A stretch of 44,880 nucleotides of DNA from Planctomycetota bacterium. Its GTDB lineage: Bacteria > Planctomycetota > MHYJ01 > WSZJ01. Below, one piece after another: positions 5,110 through 44,880 of this stretch; position 1 is the stretch's first letter, and each line of letters opens with the position of its first letter. The translations under genes and the position numbers were made by a program. Location: assembly GCA_038060895.1 (NCBI GenBank), contig JBBTCT010000035.1:1-44880 (forward strand), in the 5' to 3' direction. Below the pieces are notes generated by a model, which did not search any database, had not been told where the DNA came from, and was given only the letters and a program-made list of their open reading frames with translations.

Positions 5110-5826
5110 CTACTTCAGCACCTTTGTCATGTCGTCGTTGTATTTCGCCTCGTTCTTCTTCCACCACTCCACCCACAAGGGGTGCTGCTGCATCCGTTGC
5201 CCGGTCAGCCGGGCCAGCGCCGCGATGACTCTCAGATCGGCCGCGGGGGGAGGGGAGCCCTTCGCCGGCTTGCCCGCCCGGTCTTCGATTCCCTTCAGCA
5301 GGAGCATCAGCGCTTCAACGCTTTTCTTATGGCGGATCCCCGCAAGGGACTCGATCGCGGCGTCGACGGTCGGAAGAGTCGCGGTTTCTTTCTTTTTCAG
5401 CTGCTTGTCGATCCAGGACTTCAGCACGGCGATCGAAGACGGCAGGGCAACCGCCTCGATCGCCCTTAAGATCGCGAGGAAGATCGGGCTTTTCTCCTCG
5501 TTGGCCGTGAATCCCGACTCCAGCGCCGTTGCGGCCTCCGCGACGCCCTTCATCAGGCTGAGGGCTGCGACGGCCTTGGTCCGAATGTCGTCGGCCGGAT
5601 TCGCCAGCAGGGGTGCCAGCGCGTTGGCGGTGAGGGCATGCGGGGTAAGGCCGCAGCCGGCAATGGCGACGGTCTTCTCGTCATCGGTGCCGTCCTTCAT
5701 CGCGAGAATGAGTGCATCCACTTTCTCCTGCGCGATCTCCGCTTCCGTCTTCGGCGGCGGATCCTCGGCCAGGACAGACGCGGCGAGCGCGAGCACGGCG
5801 GCTGCCGCGAGCATCAGGCGATTCAT
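5110..5826 (-). CDS. Exported HEAT-repeat-like protein
   Basis: Signal peptide MNRLMLAAAAVLALAASVLA; helical repeats (IRTKAVAALS, AAIESLAGI, VIAALARLTG); WVEWWKK end motif; GGAG SD. Confidence 0.6.
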   Translation of the reverse strand: MNRLMLAAAAVLALAASVLAEDPPPKTEAEIAQEKVDALILAMKDGTDDEKTVAIAGCGLTPHALTANALAPLLANPADDIRTKAVAALSLMKGVAEAATALESGFTANEEKSPIFLAILRAIEAVALPSSIAVLKSWIDKQLKKKETATLPTVDAAIESLAGIRHKKSVEALMLLLKGIEDRAGKPAKGSPPPAADLRVIAALARLTGQRMQQHPLWVEWWKKNEAKYNDDMTKVLK

Positions 5827-5928
5827 GGTTCTCTCCGGATCGCGAAGGGGGTTCCACAATCTAGCGTTTTCCGCCCCGCATGAAACGTCCAGATCGCCTC
5901 CGACGCAGGACGACTCTTGCTCACGCTT

Positions 5929-6855
5929 TCAGAGCCGGAGCCCGCGGACTTCAGGAAAGCCGAGCAGGAGGTTCATGTTCTGCACGGCCTGTCCTGCGGC
6001 GCCTTTGCCGAGGTTGTCGATCGCGCTGATCACGACGAGCCGCCCCCTGCCGTCCGACTCGAATCCCCCCAGCACCGCGCGGTCCGTTCCCCGCACGTCC
6101 CGGAAGTCCGGGATCTTCTCCTGCACCTTCACCACCGGCTCGTTCCGGTACGCATCCTCGTACAGTTCGCGGAAATTGCCGTCGCCGCGCACGAACAGGT
6201 GCGCCGTCACGATGAGGCCGCGGAACGAGGGGACGACGTGCGGCGTGAAGTGGACCATCATCCCGAGAGCGCGCTCGATCTCCGCGACGTGCGCATGGTT
6301 CGCGAGGTGGTACGGCATGAGATTGTCGGCCAGCACCTTCGGGTCGTTCCGTTCGTTGGGCTTGCGTCCCGCCCCCGAATAGCCGCTCTTCCCGTCGAAC
6401 ACCGCGCGTTCGACCAGCCCTTCTTTCACCAGCGGCCACGCTGCCAGGAGGCACGCCGTCGCGTAGCACCCCGGATTCGCGATGGCATCCGACGTCGCGA
6501 TCTCCCCCCGGAACAGTTCCGGCAGCCCGTAGCGCCACTCGCCGCGCCAGTCGCGCGACAGGTCGATCAACTTCGACTTCGTGAAGAGCGGCGCGAGACG
6601 CTTCGCAATCCCTTCGCTCGTCGCGAAAAAAACCAGGTCGGGGTGAAGCTCCGCGATTTGCTCCGGCGTTTTTTCCGAGAAGCGCTCTTCGCCCTGCCAG
6701 TCCGTGAACACCTCGCGAAGCGGCTTCCCGGGCGACGACTCGCTCTGGAGCGCGATGACCTCGACGCCGCCGTGGCCCCGCAGGATGCGCGCGAGCTCGC
6801 CCCCGGCGTAGCCGGAAGCGCCGAGGACGGCAACAGTTTTGCGGGAAGCGGTCAT
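5929..6855 (-). CDS. argC: N-acetyl-gamma-glutamyl-phosphate reductase
   Basis: GASGYAGGEL, IANPGCYAT (catalytic Cys), SGYSGAG, IDNLGKGAAGQAVQNMN. Confidence 0.95.
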   Translation of the reverse strand: MTASRKTVAVLGASGYAGGELARILRGHGGVEVIALQSESSPGKPLREVFTDWQGEERFSEKTPEQIAELHPDLVFFATSEGIAKRLAPLFTKSKLIDLSRDWRGEWRYGLPELFRGEIATSDAIANPGCYATACLLAAWPLVKEGLVERAVFDGKSGYSGAGRKPNERNDPKVLADNLMPYHLANHAHVAEIERALGMMVHFTPHVVPSFRGLIVTAHLFVRGDGNFRELYEDAYRNEPVVKVQEKIPDFRDVRGTDRAVLGGFESDGRGRLVVISAIDNLGKGAAGQAVQNMNLLLGFPEVRGLRL

Positions 6856-37661: not shown

Positions 37662-38915
37662 CTACCTCGACAGGGCGGCGGCGTAAAATCCGTCGGTGCC
37701 GTGACGGACCGGGTCGATGGAAAGGTCGCCGCGCGTCAAGAGGCCATCGGGTTTGACGCCGGCCCGCCGCAGGATCGCCGCGGCGTCGGCGCGACGGAAG
37801 TCGGCATGCTCGCGCAGGAACCGAGCTATCTGCTTCTCGCCCTCGACCGGGAGAAGCGAGCATACGGCGTACACGAGCCGGCCGCCCGGTTTCACGAGCG
37901 GCGCGTAGGCCGCAAGCAGTCGCGCCTGCTCTTCGACGAGCCGCGGGATGTCTTCCTCGCGCAGCTTCCAGGCGATGTCCGGGTTGCGGCGCAGCACGCC
38001 GGTGCCGGAACACGGCGCGTCGATGAGGACGACGTCGGCCTTGCCATGGAGTCGCTTGAGCAACCCCGGATCGCTTTCCAGCAGCTGGACACGCACGTTC
38101 TGCGCCCCGGCGCGGGCGGCGCGCTCGCGCAGTTCGTCGAGGCGGAAGGCGGCAGTGTCGAAAGCGTGGAGCGTGCCCCGGTTTTCCATCATCGCCGCGA
38201 GCGCGAGTGTTTTGCCGCCTGCGCCCGCGCAGCCGTCCACGACGACGTCCGCGGACCCCGGCGCGCAGAGGAACGCGACCAGCTGGCTGCCCTCGTCCTG
38301 CATCTCGAACATTCCCTGGCGGAACGCCTCCGTGCGGAAGACATTCGCGCGGTCCTCGAGCGTCATTCCCAGCGGCGAGAAACTTGCCGGCTGCGCGGCG
38401 ATCCCTTCCTGCCACAGCCATTCCGCGAGCTCGCGGGGCGAAATTTTCAGCGTGTTGGCGCGAAGCGTCACCGGCGGTTCCGTCGCGAACGAACGTAGCA
38501 GCTCGTGTCCCCCCGGGAGCATTCGCTTCATCCACTCCGGGACGAATGCATCGATTCCGCCAGTCTCCCTTTCTCCGGCGGCGATTGCGCCGCCCAGCCC
38601 CGCGGCGCGCGGCCCGACCGTCAGCCCGCGCCGCGCCCGCAGGAACACAAGCACCGCGTCCTCGTCGCGCCCCCGCGAGACATGCCTCATCGCCGCTTCC
38701 ACGAACCCGCGCGCACGCAGCATCCCCTGCACCACGTCCGCCAGGAACCCGCGTGCTTCTCCCGCCAGCCGGCCGTCTTCGCGGAACGCCCGCGCGATCA
38801 CCTTGTCCGGCGCGCCGGGCGCGTCCAGGCAGGCGCGATAGGTCGCGCCGCAAGCGCCGATGAGCCAGCGGGGCGGAAGCGGCGGACGGCGGGTGGGGCG
38901 GGATTTCCGTGGCAT
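37662..38915 (-). CDS. RsmB/NOP family RNA m5C methyltransferase
   Basis: LRANTLK, QDEGSQLVA, DGCAGAGGKT, DAPCSGTGVLRRNPD, YAVCS, TDGFY. Confidence 0.92.
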   Translation of the reverse strand: MPRKSRPTRRPPLPPRWLIGACGATYRACLDAPGAPDKVIARAFREDGRLAGEARGFLADVVQGMLRARGFVEAAMRHVSRGRDEDAVLVFLRARRGLTVGPRAAGLGGAIAAGERETGGIDAFVPEWMKRMLPGGHELLRSFATEPPVTLRANTLKISPRELAEWLWQEGIAAQPASFSPLGMTLEDRANVFRTEAFRQGMFEMQDEGSQLVAFLCAPGSADVVVDGCAGAGGKTLALAAMMENRGTLHAFDTAAFRLDELRERAARAGAQNVRVQLLESDPGLLKRLHGKADVVLIDAPCSGTGVLRRNPDIAWKLREEDIPRLVEEQARLLAAYAPLVKPGGRLVYAVCSLLPVEGEKQIARFLREHADFRRADAAAILRRAGVKPDGLLTRGDLSIDPVRHGTDGFYAAALSR

Positions 38916-38956
38916 CAGGGGCGAGATGCTAAGGACAGGGAGCGCCGCGCGAAAGG

Positions 38957-40186
38957 TCAGGGTTTCAGCGCGATCTTCGCGAGGGGCGCCCCGGAGAAGT
39001 CCCTTCGGGTCTCGACCCATTCGAGCGCGACGCGAAGCGTTCGCTTCACGTCGCCCTGGAACGCCGGTTCGCCTTCAACCAGGACGGTAACGGGCTTGTC
39101 GAGATCGACGAGCGCGTCCGAGAGCACGATCTCCGCGGGGCGCGCGCCGGAGATCCTGATCTCGTTTCCCTCGACTTTGGCCGTGAACGCGGCCGTGGCG
39201 GATTTCGAGGACGGATCGATCCAGAAGAATCCGCCTTCGGTCCGCGCGCCGTCGCGGCTCCAGCGGACGTCCTTCGACCAGAAAGTGCGCGGCCGCACTG
39301 CGAGCCACGCCAGCGACTTGTCGCACTCGTCGGCGTAGACGTCGTGGCCGCCTTCCTTCTCGACGATCTGGAGCGGTCCGCCGGCTTCCTTCAGCCTCTC
39401 GCTGTTCTTGCGGCCGGTGGAGAGGAAGAACTCGTTGTCCTTCTTCCCGAGCACGTGATAGACGGCGAAATTCCAGGCGTTTTTCAGCCGGTCGCCGTGC
39501 TCCATCCCGCACACGAACGGCGCGATTCCCGCGAAGAGGTCCGCGTTCGGCGGGCCGACCATGAAGGAGCCGACGCCGCCGGCCGAATGCCCCACGAGAA
39601 ACAGGCGCGACCGGTCCACGCTCCAACGCTTCGCCGCCGCTTCGATCGTCTCCATCACGATCCGCGTGGGGTCGCCGATCCAGCCCGGTGAGCAGAGAAT
39701 CAGCTTTTGCTTTGCGGCGGGGCCGGTCCAGTACGAGTGTTCCTGCGGAGCGGTCACGAACGCAGTCTTGAAGTCGGGGGCGGGGCCCCCATGAAGCGCG
39801 ATGGCGAGCCCGGGCGGCTTGTCCTTTCCGGGCTTGTATCCCGGCGGAAGCTGAAACCAGGCCTTCGTCGTCTCGCCGTCCTTGCCGGTCGGAACTTCCA
39901 GGACGCCGGAGTTCGTCTTGTCGGTGAGGAACGGGTTTCCGGCGGAGAGCGTGTTGAGGAGCGCCTGCGCCTGAGCCTTCGTCAGCGGCCGGTCGAGCAC
40001 GTCGCGCGACTCGAGCGCCTTGCGCACGTCGTCGCGCGCCTTGCCCTCCGCCCAGAGCCATGCCGGCGCGAGGCGGATCGCTTCCGCAAGTTCCCTGGCG
40101 GATTGCGCTTCGGACTTCTTCGGAGCTTCTTCCGCTGCAGCTGCGAGCGCTAGCAGGGGCAGAAGGACGACGGTCATCAGTCGCAT
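38957..40186 (-). CDS. Exported alpha/beta hydrolase (esterase/peptidase-like)
   Basis: Signal peptide; IALHGG oxyanion motif, GHSAGG nucleophile, GKKD and GGH triad positions. Confidence 0.8.
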   Translation of the reverse strand: MRLMTVVLLPLLALAAAAEEAPKKSEAQSARELAEAIRLAPAWLWAEGKARDDVRKALESRDVLDRPLTKAQAQALLNTLSAGNPFLTDKTNSGVLEVPTGKDGETTKAWFQLPPGYKPGKDKPPGLAIALHGGPAPDFKTAFVTAPQEHSYWTGPAAKQKLILCSPGWIGDPTRIVMETIEAAAKRWSVDRSRLFLVGHSAGGVGSFMVGPPNADLFAGIAPFVCGMEHGDRLKNAWNFAVYHVLGKKDNEFFLSTGRKNSERLKEAGGPLQIVEKEGGHDVYADECDKSLAWLAVRPRTFWSKDVRWSRDGARTEGGFFWIDPSSKSATAAFTAKVEGNEIRISGARPAEIVLSDALVDLDKPVTVLVEGEPAFQGDVKRTLRVALEWVETRRDFSGAPLAKIALKP

Positions 40187-40299: not shown

Positions 40300-40348
40300 T
40301 TGACTCTCAATCAGCGGCGGTTTAGAATGTGAGTGAGCGTTCACTCGC
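40300..40348 (+). promoter_or_regulatory. Sigma70 promoter with palindromic operator (copy 2)
   Basis: TTGACT-N17-TAGAAT followed directly by GTGAGTGAGCGTTCACTCGC (40329-40348), 17/20 identical to copy 1 and in the same position. Confidence 0.85.
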
Positions 40349-40435
40349 TATCTGGGTTCCTTCGACTTTCGGTCTTCCGTCCCTACAATGCCCGCGCATC
40401 GGTCGCTTCCGGCTCCCATTCCGAGGGATTTCCAG

Positions 40436-41839
40436 ATGCCCGACCTCGCCCCGCCGCTCGCCGAGACCATTCCGATCGACCAGCGCCTTGGGTTGCCGCC
40501 GCGCCAGGCAAGGCTTTACAACAAGCTGCCCGACGGCCGCGTCCAGTGCTTCCTCTGCCCCCGCCACTGCAACCTCGCGCCGGACCGGTATGGATTCTGC
40601 AAGGTCCGCAAGAATCTCGACGGCGAACTCGTCACCCTGAATTACGGCGTCTCAGTCCAGCTCACCGAGGAAGTTATCGAGACCGAAGCGGTGAATCACT
40701 TCCGCCCCGGCGCGCGCATCCTCTCGCTCGGAAACGTCGGGTGCATGATGCGCTGCGAGTTCTGCCAGAACTGGGCGACGTCGCAGGCGGCGTACGTGCG
40801 AGAAGAGGACGTCCGCCGGTACACGCCGGAAGAAGTCGTCGAGACGGCGCTGGCCCACGGCATCGGCGTGCTCTCATGGACCTACAACGACCCCGTCGTC
40901 TGGCACGAGTTCGTGATCGACACGGCACGGTTGGCGCGGAAGCACGGCATTCTCAACCTCTTCAAGTCCGCGTTCTACATCGGGCCCGAAGCCGTCGACG
41001 AACTCCACGAAGTCATCGACATCTTCAGCCTGTCGCTCAAGTCGATGGACCCGGTTTTCTACACGAAGATGACCCGGGCACGGCTGGAGCCTGTCCTTGA
41101 GGCCATCAAACAGGTGCGGCGGTTCGGCGATTGCCACCTGGAAATCAGCAACCTCCTGGTCACGGGCGCCAACGACACGCTCGCAGACGCGGAAAAAGTC
41201 GCGCGCTGGATGCTCGACGAACTGGGCGACGATGTCCCGCTGCACTACGTTCGCTTCCATCCAGCGTTCGAGTACACCGCCGTCGGCCGTACGGACATCG
41301 GCCTGCTGAAGGCAGCGCGCGAGCAGGCGTTGCAGATGGGCGTGAAGCACTGCTACCTAGGCAACGTTTTCGAAACGGGCCCGTGGTCCGACACGGCCTG
41401 CCGGAAGTGTGGCGAGATCCTGGTGAAGCGGTTCGGGCTGCGCTCGTCAACGCCGGGGCTCGACGGGGAAGGGCACTGCCGCGGGTGCGGCGGGAAGTCG
41501 TCGGTGACGGTCGCGCCGGCGGGAGCCGCGCCGAAGGTGTCGGCCGCGACGTTCCCGCGGCAGATCACGCGCCTCTGGTCGGGAGAGATCGGCTCCGGTC
41601 ACGTGGAAGTCCTGAACCTGACGGATTCGCCGCAATCTGTCGTCCTGCGCCGCGACCTGCGGGACCAGGCGGGCGAAGTCATCCCGCTCCGGCCCGGCGA
41701 GCAGTGGCGCTTCCTTGTCTCCCGCGAGCGCCCCGATTCTCCCGGCGTCGCACTTCATCACACGGACGGCGTCCGCGTGGACTGCTGGGACGTCCTCGAT
41801 CGCGCGCATTTCCCCACCGCGCAGGAGATGAACCGATGA
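40436..41839 (+). CDS. Radical SAM enzyme, AmmeMemoRadiSam-like, with C-terminal extension
   Basis: N-terminal CFLCPRHC...GFCKVR, CMMRCEFCQNW (CxxxCxxC), WTYNDP, RFHP, YLGNV, CRKC and CRGC; GAGGG SD before ATG 40436 (alternative 40388). Confidence 0.88.
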   Translation: MPDLAPPLAETIPIDQRLGLPPRQARLYNKLPDGRVQCFLCPRHCNLAPDRYGFCKVRKNLDGELVTLNYGVSVQLTEEVIETEAVNHFRPGARILSLGNVGCMMRCEFCQNWATSQAAYVREEDVRRYTPEEVVETALAHGIGVLSWTYNDPVVWHEFVIDTARLARKHGILNLFKSAFYIGPEAVDELHEVIDIFSLSLKSMDPVFYTKMTRARLEPVLEAIKQVRRFGDCHLEISNLLVTGANDTLADAEKVARWMLDELGDDVPLHYVRFHPAFEYTAVGRTDIGLLKAAREQALQMGVKHCYLGNVFETGPWSDTACRKCGEILVKRFGLRSSTPGLDGEGHCRGCGGKSSVTVAPAGAAPKVSAATFPRQITRLWSGEIGSGHVEVLNLTDSPQSVVLRRDLRDQAGEVIPLRPGEQWRFLVSRERPDSPGVALHHTDGVRVDCWDVLDRAHFPTAQEMNR

Positions 41840-42981
41840 ATCCGGAAACCCGCCTGCTTCACCGGAAAGTGCCCGTCGCGGGCGCCCACCCGAACGTCAC
41901 GCCGCTCTTCCAGTGCAGCTCGTTCTTTTCCGATTCGGAATGGTTCTACTCGCGCAAGTCGAACCCGAACGTCGACGAGCTGGAAGCGGCGGTCCGGGAC
42001 ATCGAAGGGTGTGCGCACGCGGTCGCGGTGGCGACGGGAATGGCGGCGCTCACGATGGCGCTTCGGCTGCTCAAGCCGGGCGACCGGCTTGCTGCGAACG
42101 CGCTCATCTACGGGTGTTCGTACCGGCTGTTCGCGGACTTCTGCGCGCACTACGGGATCGGCTTCGACGTCCTCGATTTTACGGACCCCGCCGCCGTGAG
42201 CGCGGGGATCCGGCCCGGCACGCGCATGGTCATCTTCGAGACGCCGACGAATCCGCTTCTGCGCACGGTCCCGATCGAGGCAGTCGCGCGCGAGGTCCGC
42301 GCCGCGGCGCCCGGGGCGCTGGTCGTCGTGGACAACACGTGGGCGACGCCGCTGTTCCAGAAGCCGCTCGCGCTCGGCGCCGACCTGTGCGTCGTCAGCG
42401 CCACGAAGTTCTTTTCCGGCCACAGCGACGTCATGGGCGGGCTCGTCACCACGGACCGCGCCGACCTGGCCGAGGAGATCCGGAAGATCCGTTTCTATTC
42501 CGGCTCGAACCTGGACCCGCATTCGGCGTGGCTCCTGCGACGCAGTCTGCAGACGTTCCCGATCCGCATGCGCGCGCACGCCGCGACCTTCGGGGAGATG
42601 GCGGCACACCTGCGGTCGCACCCCCGCGTCCGCCGGGTGTACGTCCCGGAAGTCGACGGCCGGCAGCTCGCGTCGTACGGCGGGATTCTCTTCATCGAAC
42701 TCGACCCGGCGCTCGAGCCCGCGGTCGAGGCGTTCATGGATTCGCTGAAGCTGTTCGAGCGCGGGACTTCGATGGCGAGCGTCGTCTCCGCGGTGGCGCA
42801 GCCGTGGAGCGGGAGCCACCTGTCCATGACCGCCGAAGAAAAGCTCGGCGCGGGGATCGGGAAAACGCTCGTGCGGCTCTGCTTCGGGCTCGAGGATCCG
42901 GCCGATCTCAAGGCCGACCTGACGCAGGCGCTCGACAAGGCCGGCGTAACGCCGCCCGCCGCCGCGGGAGTCAAAGCATGA
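41836..42981 (+). CDS. PLP-dependent Cys/Met metabolism enzyme (cystathionine gamma-synthase/lyase fold)
   Basis: YSRKSNP, ATGMAA, FETPTNP, VDNTWATP, SATKFFSGHSD (PLP Lys), VRLCFGLED; ATGA overlap. Confidence 0.88.
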   Translation: MNPETRLLHRKVPVAGAHPNVTPLFQCSSFFSDSEWFYSRKSNPNVDELEAAVRDIEGCAHAVAVATGMAALTMALRLLKPGDRLAANALIYGCSYRLFADFCAHYGIGFDVLDFTDPAAVSAGIRPGTRMVIFETPTNPLLRTVPIEAVAREVRAAAPGALVVVDNTWATPLFQKPLALGADLCVVSATKFFSGHSDVMGGLVTTDRADLAEEIRKIRFYSGSNLDPHSAWLLRRSLQTFPIRMRAHAATFGEMAAHLRSHPRVRRVYVPEVDGRQLASYGGILFIELDPALEPAVEAFMDSLKLFERGTSMASVVSAVAQPWSGSHLSMTAEEKLGAGIGKTLVRLCFGLEDPADLKADLTQALDKAGVTPPAAAGVKA

Positions 42982-43760
42982 AGCGGCTGCTGCCTCTCGC
43001 CGTGTTCCCCGCCGTGCAGATCGCGTGCTTCGTCGGCGCGGGTCTCACCTGGCGGGAGTTTCCGTGGCTCGCGGGGGGACTCTTCGCCCTCTCGGTCCTC
43101 GCGCTCGACCTGACCGTGCACATTTTCCTGCACGAGTGCATCCACGCGACGCGACCTGAAGGGATGTCGTGGACGGGTTCGTTCGCGCTGACCCTGGTCG
43201 GCGGGATGCCGTTCGACGGGTACCGCCTTCACCACTACAACCACCACCGCAACGACAACGGCCCGGGAGACTGGTCGACGACATGGGCCTGGGATGCCGC
43301 GGGCGGCCGGCGGCCGCGACGCCGCTTCGCGTACGTTCTGGGGTGGCCCGCCGCGCTCGCCCGCGCCCGCGTCGCGGTGCGCGCGGAAGCGAAGGCCGGG
43401 CTGATTTCCGCCGGGATTCAACGCCGCCTGCGCTGGGAGAAGATCTTCCTCGGCGTTGCGATCATCGCCCTGGCCGCGGCCGACTGGCGCTGGGCGCTCG
43501 GGTACGTCGCGATGGTCTACGGCGGCTGGGCCCTCGTGTCCGTCCACAATTTCGGCCAGCACCTGCCGATCGAAGGCCACGATCCGGCGACGAGTTTCGA
43601 GTCGCGCCTCTACAACGCGCTGCTCTTCAACAATGGCCTCCACGCCGAGCACCATGCAGACCCCGCGAAGGCCTGGTACGAAGTGAAGCCGGACCCGTCG
43701 CACCCGCGCGCCCGGGGTCCGCATCTGGTGGCGGCGTTCCGCGGGGTGGGGAAGCGATGA
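42978..43760 (+). CDS. Membrane di-iron fatty acid desaturase/hydroxylase family
   Basis: His boxes HECIH, HHYNHH, HAEHH plus TM segments; ATGA overlap. Confidence 0.85.
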   Translation: MKRLLPLAVFPAVQIACFVGAGLTWREFPWLAGGLFALSVLALDLTVHIFLHECIHATRPEGMSWTGSFALTLVGGMPFDGYRLHHYNHHRNDNGPGDWSTTWAWDAAGGRRPRRRFAYVLGWPAALARARVAVRAEAKAGLISAGIQRRLRWEKIFLGVAIIALAAADWRWALGYVAMVYGGWALVSVHNFGQHLPIEGHDPATSFESRLYNALLFNNGLHAEHHADPAKAWYEVKPDPSHPRARGPHLVAAFRGVGKR

Positions 43761-44512
43761 CCGGGGAAGCCTTCACACACATCCTCGAGCACGGCTCGCC
43801 GCGCCTGGCGTCGGTCGCGGTGCTGGCGGCGTGCGTCGCCGGGAGCTGGCTGACTCGAAGGGACGCGCGCGGATGGCCGCTGTCGCGCTCCCAGCGCGCA
43901 GGCCTGTTCGCTTCGATTCTCATCGCAGGCTTCGCCGGATGCGCGATTCCCGCGTTTCTCGCGGGCGACGTGATCGGTTCGGCAGCGCTGCTCGAATGGC
44001 GGGGCCCGAAGACGATTCTCGGCGGCATTCTCGGCGGATTCGCCGGCGCGACCGCCTTCAAGGCGCTGGCGCGCATCTCGTACGACACCAGCGACGCCTT
44101 CGCCCGTGGCACCTGCCTCATGCTCGCCATCGGCCGCCTCGGCTGCGCCGCCCGCCACTGCTGTTTCGGCATCGAAGTTCCCTCCTGGGCCGGCTGGGAC
44201 CTCGGCGACGGCGTCCAGCGCCTCCCGGTGCAGGTCCTGGAAGCCGCGCTCGTGTTCGGCCTGTTTTTGTTCCTCAACCATCTGCACCGCCGGGGTCTCG
44301 CTCACAACCGGCGCTTCTTCGTCTTCCTCCTCGGCTACGGACTCACGCGCTTCTCCCTTGAATTCCTGCGCGAGCAAGTCGCCGGCGGGTGGCTCGGGCT
44401 CGGGTTCTACCAGTGGCTAGCGCTGGCCACGGCGGGCGTCGGGGCGTTCCAGATCGTGAAGCGGTCTCCACGGCCGGCGGCGGTCGAGACGTGCGAAGGG
44501 ACGGCGGCATGA
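43757..44512 (+). CDS. Prolipoprotein diacylglyceryl transferase (Lgt)-like membrane protein, divergent
   Basis: KTILGGILGG, AIGRLGC...CCFG, PVQVLEA, YGLTRFSLEFLR, YQW; ATGA overlap. Confidence 0.75.
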   Translation: MTGEAFTHILEHGSPRLASVAVLAACVAGSWLTRRDARGWPLSRSQRAGLFASILIAGFAGCAIPAFLAGDVIGSAALLEWRGPKTILGGILGGFAGATAFKALARISYDTSDAFARGTCLMLAIGRLGCAARHCCFGIEVPSWAGWDLGDGVQRLPVQVLEAALVFGLFLFLNHLHRRGLAHNRRFFVFLLGYGLTRFSLEFLREQVAGGWLGLGFYQWLALATAGVGAFQIVKRSPRPAAVETCEGTAA

Positions 44513-44880
44513 AGCGCGTGCGATTCGAATATGCGGGTCCCGTCGCGGAGCTTGTCTCGCGCCAGATCATGGGCGAGGCGATTCCTGGATTTCACCGGCG
44601 GGCGCTCGCGGGTGCCACTGTGAGTGGAAGCGCCGATTGGGTCGTGCGGCTCGGGGAGAATCTGTTGTTCGACGCAGGCGGCCTGCAACTCCTGGCCGCG
44701 GCGCTGGCTCGCTACGAAGGCCCGGCGGACCGCCTCGAGGTTCACCTCGTTCCCGACCCGATCGCCGCGCGCGACTACTACGGCCTTCAGTCCGGCCTGA
44801 ATCCCGACGGCACGGTCCGGCTTCCCGCGGAAGCCTTCCGAGTCACTCCGCCCCCCCGCCCCCCCCCCCCCGCCCCCCCC
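44509..44880 (+). CDS. Hypothetical protein, truncated by the right edge
   Basis: ATGA overlap with the Lgt-like stop; open frame MKRVRFEYAGPVAELVSRQIMGEAIPGFH... to the end of the window. Confidence 0.6.
   Translation, partial: MKRVRFEYAGPVAELVSRQIMGEAIPGFHRRALAGATVSGSADWVVRLGENLLFDAGGLQLLAAALARYEGPADRLEVHLVPDPIAARDYYGLQSGLNPDGTVRLPAEAFRVTPPPRPPPPAPP

Follow-up and report, generated by a model that had tools for sequence, protein, structure and literature searches.

Lgt moves diacylglycerol from phosphatidylglycerol onto the lipobox cysteine and thereby starts the maturation of bacterial lipoproteins. It is regarded as a single-purpose housekeeping enzyme, and to our knowledge no member of its family acts on anything except protein cysteine. 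A paralogue of this enzyme is encoded in a seven-gene operon (g1 to g7), the 5' part of which closes the DNA stretch analyzed here (the window, i.e., the first 44,880 nt of the 95,109-nt scaffold C35; contig JBBTCT010000035.1, assembly GCA_038060895.1, Planctomycetota bacterium). The source is a metagenome-assembled genome (MAG) of 5.4 Mb in 47 contigs (G000). In this operon the Lgt paralogue (g4) is combined with a radical S-adenosylmethionine (SAM) enzyme (g1), a pyridoxal phosphate (PLP) enzyme of cysteine/methionine metabolism (g2), a desaturase-type membrane protein (g3), a protein with a predicted left-handed beta-helix (LbH; g5), a polytopic membrane protein (g6) and a mini-protein ending in a hydrophobic helix, a cysteine and a short tail (g7).

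Described systems offer partial counterparts for the other enzymes. The radical SAM gene resembles that of the AmmeMemoRadiSam system, which consists of a radical SAM enzyme, AMMECR1 and Memo, and of which no functional account was found in the accessible portions of the open literature. PLP enzymes of the gamma-lyase type require a free alpha-amino acid. The rhizobitoxine pathway pairs a PLP gamma-replacement enzyme, RtxA, with a membrane desaturase-family protein, RtxC, and provides a precedent for g2 and g3 in that a Cys/Met-family PLP enzyme and a desaturase-family enzyme serve one amino-acid-derived molecule. In gene content the rhizobitoxine cluster is unlike the operon, as it is not known to include a radical SAM, Lgt-like or LbH gene. 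No published description of the whole combination was found in the open full-text literature, subscription papers lying outside the scope of the search, and no described pathway was matched in the Pfam and NCBIfam libraries, in agreement with the initial annotation of the window, which had not recognized the combination. A passage of PMC8939145 deals with ordinary lipoproteins in the vicinity of graspetide loci.

Conservation and architectures of the gene module

The g3 protein was found in four of 41 genomes, namely in G000 and in three of 40 relatives, and the seven genes are collinear in all three of these relatives; the g3 query missed a further congener (G005), in which a 2.9-kb contig bears g5 and g6. 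A profile of the g5 family retrieved 528, 201 and 37 representatives among 1.84 billion at E ≤ 1e-3, E ≤ 1e-10 and E ≤ 1e-30, respectively, and the family is present in four of 401 sampled Planctomycetota genomes, G000 counted. When the g5 alignment was used to scan GTDB, at one genome per species, 54 loci were obtained, all of them from MAGs. Their depositor labels span about eight phyla (Planctomycetota, Gammaproteobacteria, other Pseudomonadota, Elusimicrobiota, Bdellovibrionota, Geobacteraceae, Aquificaceae, Bacteroidota, and Roseibacillus of the Verrucomicrobiota), the gammaproteobacterial loci being labelled Thiotrichaceae, Cocleimonas, Leucothrix and Methylococcales. Searches of these loci with the seven proteins (tblastn) detected g1 in 36, g2 in 35, g3 in 34 and g4 in 34 of them. 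All of g1 to g5 occur together in 22 of the 54 loci and g5 is accompanied by at least one of g1 to g4 in 48; among the six loci with g5 only are some on short or truncated contigs and some in which the desaturase is divergent. Lineages vary in gene order and strand, which points to selection on linkage rather than to inherited synteny, and in-frame fusions of LGT with LbH (P0031) and of FA_desaturase with LbH (P0141, P0143) physically tie g3, g4 and g5. The genes thus form a rare, patchy, conserved module with membrane-associated components. The initial annotation had named two findings that would speak against a distinct pathway, a lack of conserved co-localization and a match to a characterized pathway; both were looked for and neither was made.

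Clustering of open reading frames (ORFs), together with Pfam and NCBIfam annotation of the loci, separated two architectures. Type A (34 loci) contains the Lgt-like gene and, in 11 of the 34, the alpha and beta genes of a 2-oxoacid:ferredoxin oxidoreductase resembling indolepyruvate:ferredoxin oxidoreductase (IOR), located ahead of the radical SAM gene; counted over all 54 loci, such a two-subunit enzyme occupies this place in 23. The operon of the window is of type A without IOR, and no cluster-type IOR was detected in its genome, where the sole counterpart is an IOR-alpha homologue of 27-28% identity on C22. Type B (17 loci, Bacteroidota and Bdellovibrionota) includes IOR, radical SAM, PLP, desaturase-type and LbH genes, has no Lgt-like gene, and carries a type II fatty acid synthase (FAS) and acyl carrier protein (ACP) set, comprising a FabA-like dehydratase, a pair of ketosynthase (KS) and chain length factor (CLF)-like proteins, a short-chain dehydrogenase/reductase (SDR) ketoreductase and an ACP of 130 aa. 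A saccharopine-dehydrogenase-like reductase, an MMPL/HAE3 exporter and often an Acyl_transf_3 protein are also encoded. No locus combines the Lgt-like gene with the KS/ACP set (0/17). Type B clusters of 12-14 genes were seen in L046-L063 (Bacteroidota, Bdellovibrionota and Roseibacillus MAGs), and a cluster of this type appears to be an uncharacterized lipid or polyketide pathway in itself.

Several further genes accompany the clusters in particular lineages. A gene for a 'predicted metal-dependent hydrolase' (PF10118, 242-248 bits) flanks the type A cluster in five gammaproteobacterial loci (L026, L027, L029, L032 and L033), being upstream of the IOR genes in four of them and right after the LbH gene in L029. 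B12-binding radical SAM genes are present in L025, L043, L061 and L062, and an alpha/beta hydrolase gene comes right after the LbH gene in L025 and L043. In L028 (positions 5665-6810; MAG labelled Aquificaceae), a TMEM43-family protein (PF07787, 183.5 bits) is encoded between the desaturase-type and Lgt-like genes.

The Lgt paralogue and the cysteine-tailed mini-proteins

The g4 protein belongs to the Pfam family of Lgt (PF01790, 66.9 bits vs. a cut-off of 24.9; 5AZB/5AZC) and is similar to it in size. It differs from Lgt in scoring below equivalog level, with 26.4 vs. 118.9 bits required on TIGR00544 and 48.6 vs. 334 on NF000778, and in its place within a biosynthetic operon. The canonical Lgt of the same genome, which shares 29% identity with g4, reaches 127 bits on TIGR00544. 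Three blocks are common to both proteins (GRxGC...CC.G, R.P.Q..E and YG..RF..E..R), and a partial alignment of g4 to Escherichia coli Lgt (5azb) retains the GRLG arginine, YG..R..E and R.P.Q..E; in addition, the g4 family has invariant residues of its own (PK..GG, DTSD.F..G and RHCC). Because separate canonical copies of Lgt and of the AmmeMemoRadiSam radical SAM gene, as well as AMMECR1 and Memo, are encoded elsewhere in the genome, the Lgt-like and radical SAM genes of the operon are regarded as extra, specialized copies.

The C-terminus of g7 reads ...FVAC-ATSGF. The same layout, with a hydrophobic helix, then Cys and a further 1-14 residues at the C-terminus, is seen in small same-strand ORFs of type A loci (among them ...FVAC-VNEGVKW, ...FVVC-MI, ...IMGC-SVPFR and ...FIVC-LSA), and the tails FVVCMI, IMGCSVPFR and LIACSPLRF recur across MAGs. 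A strict test was applied to same-strand ORFs no more than 3 kb from the core: Cys had to lie at most 14 residues from the C-terminus and the preceding 20 residues had to include at least 13 strongly hydrophobic and at most one polar or Pro residue. Such ORFs were found in 22 of the 34 loci with an Lgt-like hit, in 1-3 copies each, vs. two of the 20 other loci, one of these being a type A contig that breaks off before Lgt and the other having a low-complexity ORF (L055). The real sequences gave 34 hits in total, compared with two in reversed-sequence controls. The Lgt paralogue and the Cys-tailed mini-ORFs are therefore tightly associated. In Gammaproteobacteria the mini-ORFs are situated between the desaturase-type and Lgt-like genes; three loci (L041, L014 and L015) have variants failing the strict test directly upstream of the Lgt-like gene, and L044 has an ORF upstream of g3 that is recognized under relaxed criteria. 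The mini-ORFs open with a CxxC...CxxC zinc ribbon in Planctomycetota, in one Pseudomonadota MAG and in one Bacteriovoracaceae MAG.

Among 23 single-helix mini-ORFs, Lys and Arg residues before the helix are more numerous than those after Cys in 16, equal in seven and fewer in none, a bias in keeping with an N-terminus in the cytoplasm and Cys on the outer face, as in the geometry of the lipobox. As in the lipobox, too, Cys stands directly after a membrane helix in the candidate substrates of g4. Lgt substrates, however, consist of an N-terminal signal peptide and a mature protein, whereas the candidates carry Cys 1-14 residues from the C-terminus and often have Val, Ile or Met before it. In 31 tails, the preceding residue is Val in 13, Ala in seven, Gly in four and Ser in three, a mixture that makes the putative site lipobox-like rather than canonical.

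Accompanying enzymes and membrane proteins

The g1 protein (PF04055 Radical_SAM, 63.2 bits) scores 291.4 bits on TIGR04337 (AmmeMemoSam_rS; cut-off 220), a model that fails to separate it from the canonical 355-aa paralogue of the same genome (296.3 bits), and its orthologues bear the NCBI name 'AmmeMemoRadiSam system radical SAM enzyme'. Besides this score, it resembles the AmmeMemoRadiSam enzyme in three cysteine groups, namely the CX3CX2C motif (CMMRCEFC, with C103, C107 and C110 invariant in alignment A4), an N-terminal Cys cluster and a C-terminal CxxC...CxxC. Unlike in the AmmeMemoRadiSam system, AMMECR1 and Memo are not its neighbors: as the initial annotation had remarked for the window, neither gene is present on scaffold C35 (AMMECR1 is on C7, and Memo on C11 and C14), nor was either found among the annotated related loci, and g1 is nearly always followed by the PLP gene. 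The view of g1 as a paralogue of the AmmeMemoRadiSam-type gene without AMMECR1/Memo neighbors is thus supported, the canonical 355-aa paralogue, sited elsewhere in the genome, being the better candidate partner of AMMECR1 and Memo.

Pyruvate formate-lyase activase (PFL-AE) matches g1 by sequence (3c8f, E 1.8e-7) and is the best solved structural match to its AlphaFold2 (AF2) model (pLDDT 87.5; TMt 0.75-0.78). To this fold g1 adds a family-specific C-terminal beta-sandwich of about 110 aa (invariants W381, H389, R425 and LDRAHFP), which is missing from the canonical paralogue on C2 and also occurs in FAS-type clusters. The Foldseek search of the whole model does not isolate this domain, and a word-indexed search with it returned four close relatives, a number that is limited by the reach of the index and is no measure of the spread of the domain. 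On C2 (locus L009, 4580-7441, minus strand), the canonical radical SAM gene lies immediately upstream of canonical lgt, and the gene upstream of it resembles selD by eye. That this neighborhood might reflect a shared function of canonical Lgt and the canonical AmmeMemoRadiSam enzyme was considered and rejected: the adjacency was seen in six of 30 loci, all of the same genus, and is therefore taken as probably local synteny. In the same comparison, the radical SAM matches of several relatives carry single in-frame stop codons (TGA, TAG or TAA).

The g2 protein gives a full-length match to PF01053 (Cys_Met_Meta_PP, 303.1 bits). Fifty NCBIfam families were matched, and all 25 displayed fall under their cut-offs, the best being methionine gamma-lyase (MGL; NF005695, 271.9 vs. 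666). Alignment to cystathionine gamma-lyase (6k1n, E 2e-65) places its SATKF motif on the PLP-lysine motif SATKY and the arginine of its C-terminal LVRL in the alpha-carboxylate arginine region of gamma-lyases. With cystathionine gamma-lyase, methionine gamma-lyase and cystathionine gamma-synthase (6K1N, 1E5E) it thus shares both PF01053 and the PLP-lysine motif, and it differs from the solved enzymes in an N-terminus that is about 20 residues shorter in the alignment and in being paired with a radical SAM enzyme. Judged by its sequence, g2 is not assignable to any known specificity within the gamma-lyase/synthase family, and the aligned residues suggest that its substrate is a free amino acid. 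The g3 protein matches PF00487 (FA_desaturase, 83.5 bits), and its histidine boxes HxxxH, HHxxHH, HNFGQH and HxxHH are kept across 26 family members; a word-indexed search retrieved 20 proteins, named at most 'fatty acid desaturase'. These profile matches, together with those of g1 and g4, bear out the families that the initial annotation had named for the first four genes.

The fifth gene had been left there as unknown, and the 124-aa fragment of g5 in the window indeed has no Pfam or NCBIfam hit. This label does not hold for the complete protein: the AF2 model of the G006 orthologue (pLDDT 88) predicts a nucleotidyltransferase-like alpha/beta N-terminal domain followed by a left-handed beta-helix, with ST0452 as a Foldseek match (5z09, E 6.7e-8, TMq 0.52) and GMPPA/B, GlmU and eIF2B subunits as others, at 8-14% identity. 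The protein would thus share its two-domain fold with nucleotidyltransferase-acyltransferases of the GlmU/ST0452/GMPPB type and differs from them in this low identity, in family-specific motifs and in being fused to membrane enzymes in some genomes. Its matches to the LbH families of Pfam (Hexapep, LbH_EIF2B and GMPPB_C) are weak and under cut-off, its best NCBIfam score is 32.4 vs. a cut-off of 440, and no nucleotidyltransferase signature was recognized on inspection of alignment A1 by eye. The C-terminal half is extremely conserved, with the strong family motifs WLMHDLVL and FLIHGPYQFS. For g6, a weak sub-cut-off match to 6TM_PilS was obtained. Neither Pfam nor NCBIfam holds a model specific to g3, g4, g5, g6 or g7.

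Operon structure, upstream region and genomic context

ORF calling and reading of the sequence confirmed five plus-strand ORFs from 40436 to the end of the window, with the ATGA start/stop overlaps between successive genes at 41836, 42978, 43757 and 44509 that the initial annotation had described. The scaffold extends its five-gene operon to seven genes, the rest of g5 together with g6 and g7 having been recovered past a scaffold gap (Table 1). The reading frame of g5 changes across this gap. Contigs from two independent DNA runs match the window up to 44842 and then continue for 229-481 nt past the aligned part, positions 44843-44880 having been skipped as a repeat in this comparison. Since these contigs carry further sequence beyond 44842, the poly-C run at the end of the window is probably a scaffolding or sequencing artefact and not trustworthy coding sequence. 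Four metatranscriptome contigs (151-260 nt, no differences) map to g2, the g2/g3 junction (42892-43042) and g4; as such libraries can include DNA, and uncovered stretches carry no meaning, they are at most a weak hint of operon expression.

Table 1. Positions of the operon genes and associated features (window coordinates unless marked C35).
Feature	Position	Strand	Description
Sigma-70-like promoter candidate	40300-40328	+	TTGACT-17 nt-TAGAAT, 10/12 matches
Near-palindrome GAGTGAgcgtTCACTC	40331-40346	+	Follows the first -10; candidate operator or 5' leader hairpin
Second promoter-like site	40362-40389	+	TCGACT-16 nt-TACAAT, within conserved block CCCTACAATGCCCGC
g1	40436-41839	+	467 aa, radical SAM enzyme of PFL-activase/AmmeMemoRadiSam type
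g2	41836-42981	+	381 aa, Cys/Met-metabolism PLP enzyme, gamma-lyase/synthase family
g3	42978-43760	+	260 aa, small membrane protein of the di-iron desaturase/hydroxylase family
g4	43757-44512	+	251 aa, Lgt-family membrane transferase paralogue
g5, N-terminal 124 codons	44509-44880	+	Predicted GlmU/ST0452-like; remainder past scaffold gap to about C35:45734
Poly-C low-complexity run	44843-44880	none	Abuts 10 N (C35 44881-44890) inside g5
g6	C35 45761-46387		208 aa, polytopic membrane protein
g7	C35 46384-46839		151 aa, zinc-ribbon membrane mini-protein, ATGA overlap with g6
Metatranscriptome contig coverage	42321-43042 and 44140-44399		Two runs, one aquifer sample

The start of g1 is preceded at 7-8 nt by a GAGGGA Shine-Dalgarno-like motif, and relatives align from its residue 1; an alternative ATG is present at 40388. 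Two sigma-70-like sites were found upstream of g1, vs. 0.3 expected. The -35 and -10 hexamers of the first site and the trailing near-palindrome, where an inverted repeat (I2) has its arms at 40324-40336 and 40341-40353, are kept in the congener G006, and at the aligned position G007 has a different, perfect palindrome, GCGGAAtccggTTCCGC. The block CCCTACAATGCCCGC around the second -10-like hexamer is conserved in all three genomes (window, G006 and G007). From this arrangement, the operator-controlled promoter proposed in the initial annotation is plausible. The leader (40329-40440) has a predicted folding energy of -39.3 kcal/mol (z = -2.8), and the predicted fold pairs the GAGGGA motif with an upstream UUCCUUC stretch. 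An Rfam scan of the leader matched no family, its sole hit being a sub-threshold miRNA, which argues against a riboswitch.

Beyond the operon, a 1341-aa ORF on the minus strand (C35 46852-50877), whose translation resembles by eye a kinase with WD40 repeats, converges on the operon end; it was not found beside the cluster in the three relatives examined. On the upstream side (37662-40186, minus strand), a 409-aa ORF whose N-terminus is hydrophobic appears by eye to encode an esterase-like secreted protein, and an ORF overlapping it resembles, likewise by eye, an RsmB-type methyltransferase. The context of the cluster varies among congeners in orientation and in the presence of the esterase, the orthologue of which occurs without an adjoining cluster in two of them.

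Proposed function and alternative explanations

Tentatively, we favor the reading that a dedicated Lgt paralogue lipidates the cysteine of the mini-proteins and that g1, g2, g3 and g5, with IOR where present, build or tailor the lipid. The paralogue would put a thioether lipid on the Cys just past the last membrane helix, mirroring the action of Lgt at the lipobox, and the group transferred would be diacylglycerol, taken from phosphatidylglycerol, or some tailored relative. Starting from a free amino acid, the radical SAM/PLP pair would make or tailor this lipid or its head group; at the membrane, the Lgt paralogue would be joined by the desaturase-type enzyme and the LbH protein, both acting on the same lipid; and type B clusters would assemble the same lipid on their dedicated ACP and then export it. 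A possible and chemically coherent scheme is that the PLP enzyme releases a 2-oxoacid, which IOR would turn into acyl-CoA, feeding the LbH transferase, and reduced ferredoxin, from which the radical SAM and di-iron enzymes would draw electrons. The mini-protein as substrate, the group transferred and every chemical step of g1, g2, g3 and g5 are what we infer from sequence. Eukaryotic CAAX-box prenylation may serve as an analogy, in that it likewise places a thioether lipid on a Cys near the C-terminus; its enzymes are unrelated, and the mini-protein Cys differs in following a membrane helix, 2-10 residues from the C-terminus in the tails listed. Of the pathway proposed in the initial annotation, the non-chance combination of genes and the absence of a match to a described pathway stand; the most telling part, the Cys-tailed g7, lay outside the window, and the sulfur-amino-acid chemistry and acyl-chain oxidation it had invoked are suggestions at the level of protein families.

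Several observations weigh against lipidation of the mini-proteins by g4. The position of the HGG histidine of 5azb, one of the residues considered here as catalytic or phosphatidylglycerol-binding in E. coli Lgt, is occupied by Leu in g4 and by Tyr in the Lgt of the same genome. A strict Cys-tail ORF is missing from 12 of the 34 Lgt-containing loci, some of them on truncated contigs, and five loci (L016, L022, L023, L024 and L045) have none even under relaxed criteria. A crude hydropathy count gave no definite topology for the multi-span zinc-ribbon forms, g7 included, and Val directly before Cys is atypical for a canonical lipobox or signal peptidase II site. Finally, the radical SAM, PLP, desaturase-type and LbH genes are present in the 17 type B loci, which have no Lgt-like gene and a single strict Cys-tail ORF (the low-complexity one of L055); the chemistry of these enzymes therefore cannot depend on the peptide.

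The last point is also the starting point of the alternative that survives best, which we hold to be possible, if rather doubtful: the cluster would make a free specialized membrane lipid or a small lipophilic metabolite, and the mini-proteins would be small accessory or regulatory membrane subunits instead of substrates. For example, an amino-acid-derived head group or starter unit would be acylated by the LbH protein and oxidized by the desaturase-type enzyme. The Lgt paralogue would, in this case, use or remodel a phospholipid. Retention of the enzyme set beside FAS/ACP genes and an MMPL/HAE3 exporter in the 17 Lgt-less loci gives these clusters the make-up of a lipid or polyketide pathway; the IOR-like enzyme of 23 loci could supply acyl-CoA, reduced ferredoxin or both; the g2 residues aligning with the PLP lysine and the alpha-carboxylate arginine fit a free amino-acid substrate; and the desaturase-LbH fusions are consistent with such a route. 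It gives no account, however, of why Cys-tail ORFs track the Lgt-like gene (22/34 vs. 2/20 loci) or why mini-ORFs lie immediately upstream of it, and members of the Lgt family are not known to act on anything other than protein cysteine.

A route resembling that of RiPPs, peptides that are made by the ribosome and modified after translation, is unlikely. Here the tail would be S-lipidated and cut before Cys, giving a short lipopeptide (lipid-Cys plus 1-14 residues) or a Cys-derived molecule that the radical SAM and PLP enzymes would then process. The 1-3 mini-ORFs per locus, with family-wise conserved tails (CSVPFR, CSPLRF, CMI and CGGEFGIKW), do recall core peptides, and radical SAM enzymes of the PFL-activase type act on proteins, the best solved match, 3cb8, being a peptide complex. 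The route is weakened, however, by the retention of g1 and g2 in the 17 FAS-type loci, which lack an Lgt-like gene. Moreover, no protease or RRE-like peptide-recognition domain was detected, the C-terminal domain of g1 being a beta-sandwich that is shared with FAS-type clusters, and PLP enzymes of the gamma-lyase type call for a free alpha-amino acid. That housekeeping genes stand side by side by chance is highly improbable and excluded for practical purposes: each encoded protein clears the Pfam cut-off of some widespread family and NCBI names the g1 orthologues after AmmeMemoRadiSam, but linkage across distant lineages with shuffled order, the fusions, the separate canonical copies, the scores of g2 and g4 far under every displayed equivalog cut-off and the rarity of the g5 family (37 at E ≤ 1e-30 among 1.84 billion; 4/401 Planctomycetota genomes) all speak against it.

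Implications

Lipidation of the mini-proteins by the Lgt paralogue can be extended into a broader picture, which is speculative and on balance doubtful. In several phyla, mini-proteins of 45-200 aa, with the succession of helix, Cys and tail as their sole conserved feature, would be lipidated at their C-terminus by a specialized Lgt paralogue with a lipid tailored by the module; this would amount to a CAAX-like counterpart or to a ribosomal mini-lipopeptide route, and type B clusters, in which the module is coupled to an FAS of its own in Bacteroidota and Bdellovibrionota, would produce a new lipid class in its free form. As the partners of the g1 subfamily differ, its automatic annotation as 'AmmeMemoRadiSam system' is misleading. 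All 54 carrier loci come from MAGs, so that the product, be it a lipid or a lipoprotein, belongs to the biology of uncultured lineages. The cluster offers a testable context for four families of unassigned specificity, namely the g1-type radical SAM, the g2-type PLP, the 260-aa desaturase-type and the GlmU-like LbH proteins, and, if the favored reading is true, a second, specialized Lgt with its own linked mini-substrates would widen the known scope of bacterial protein lipidation.

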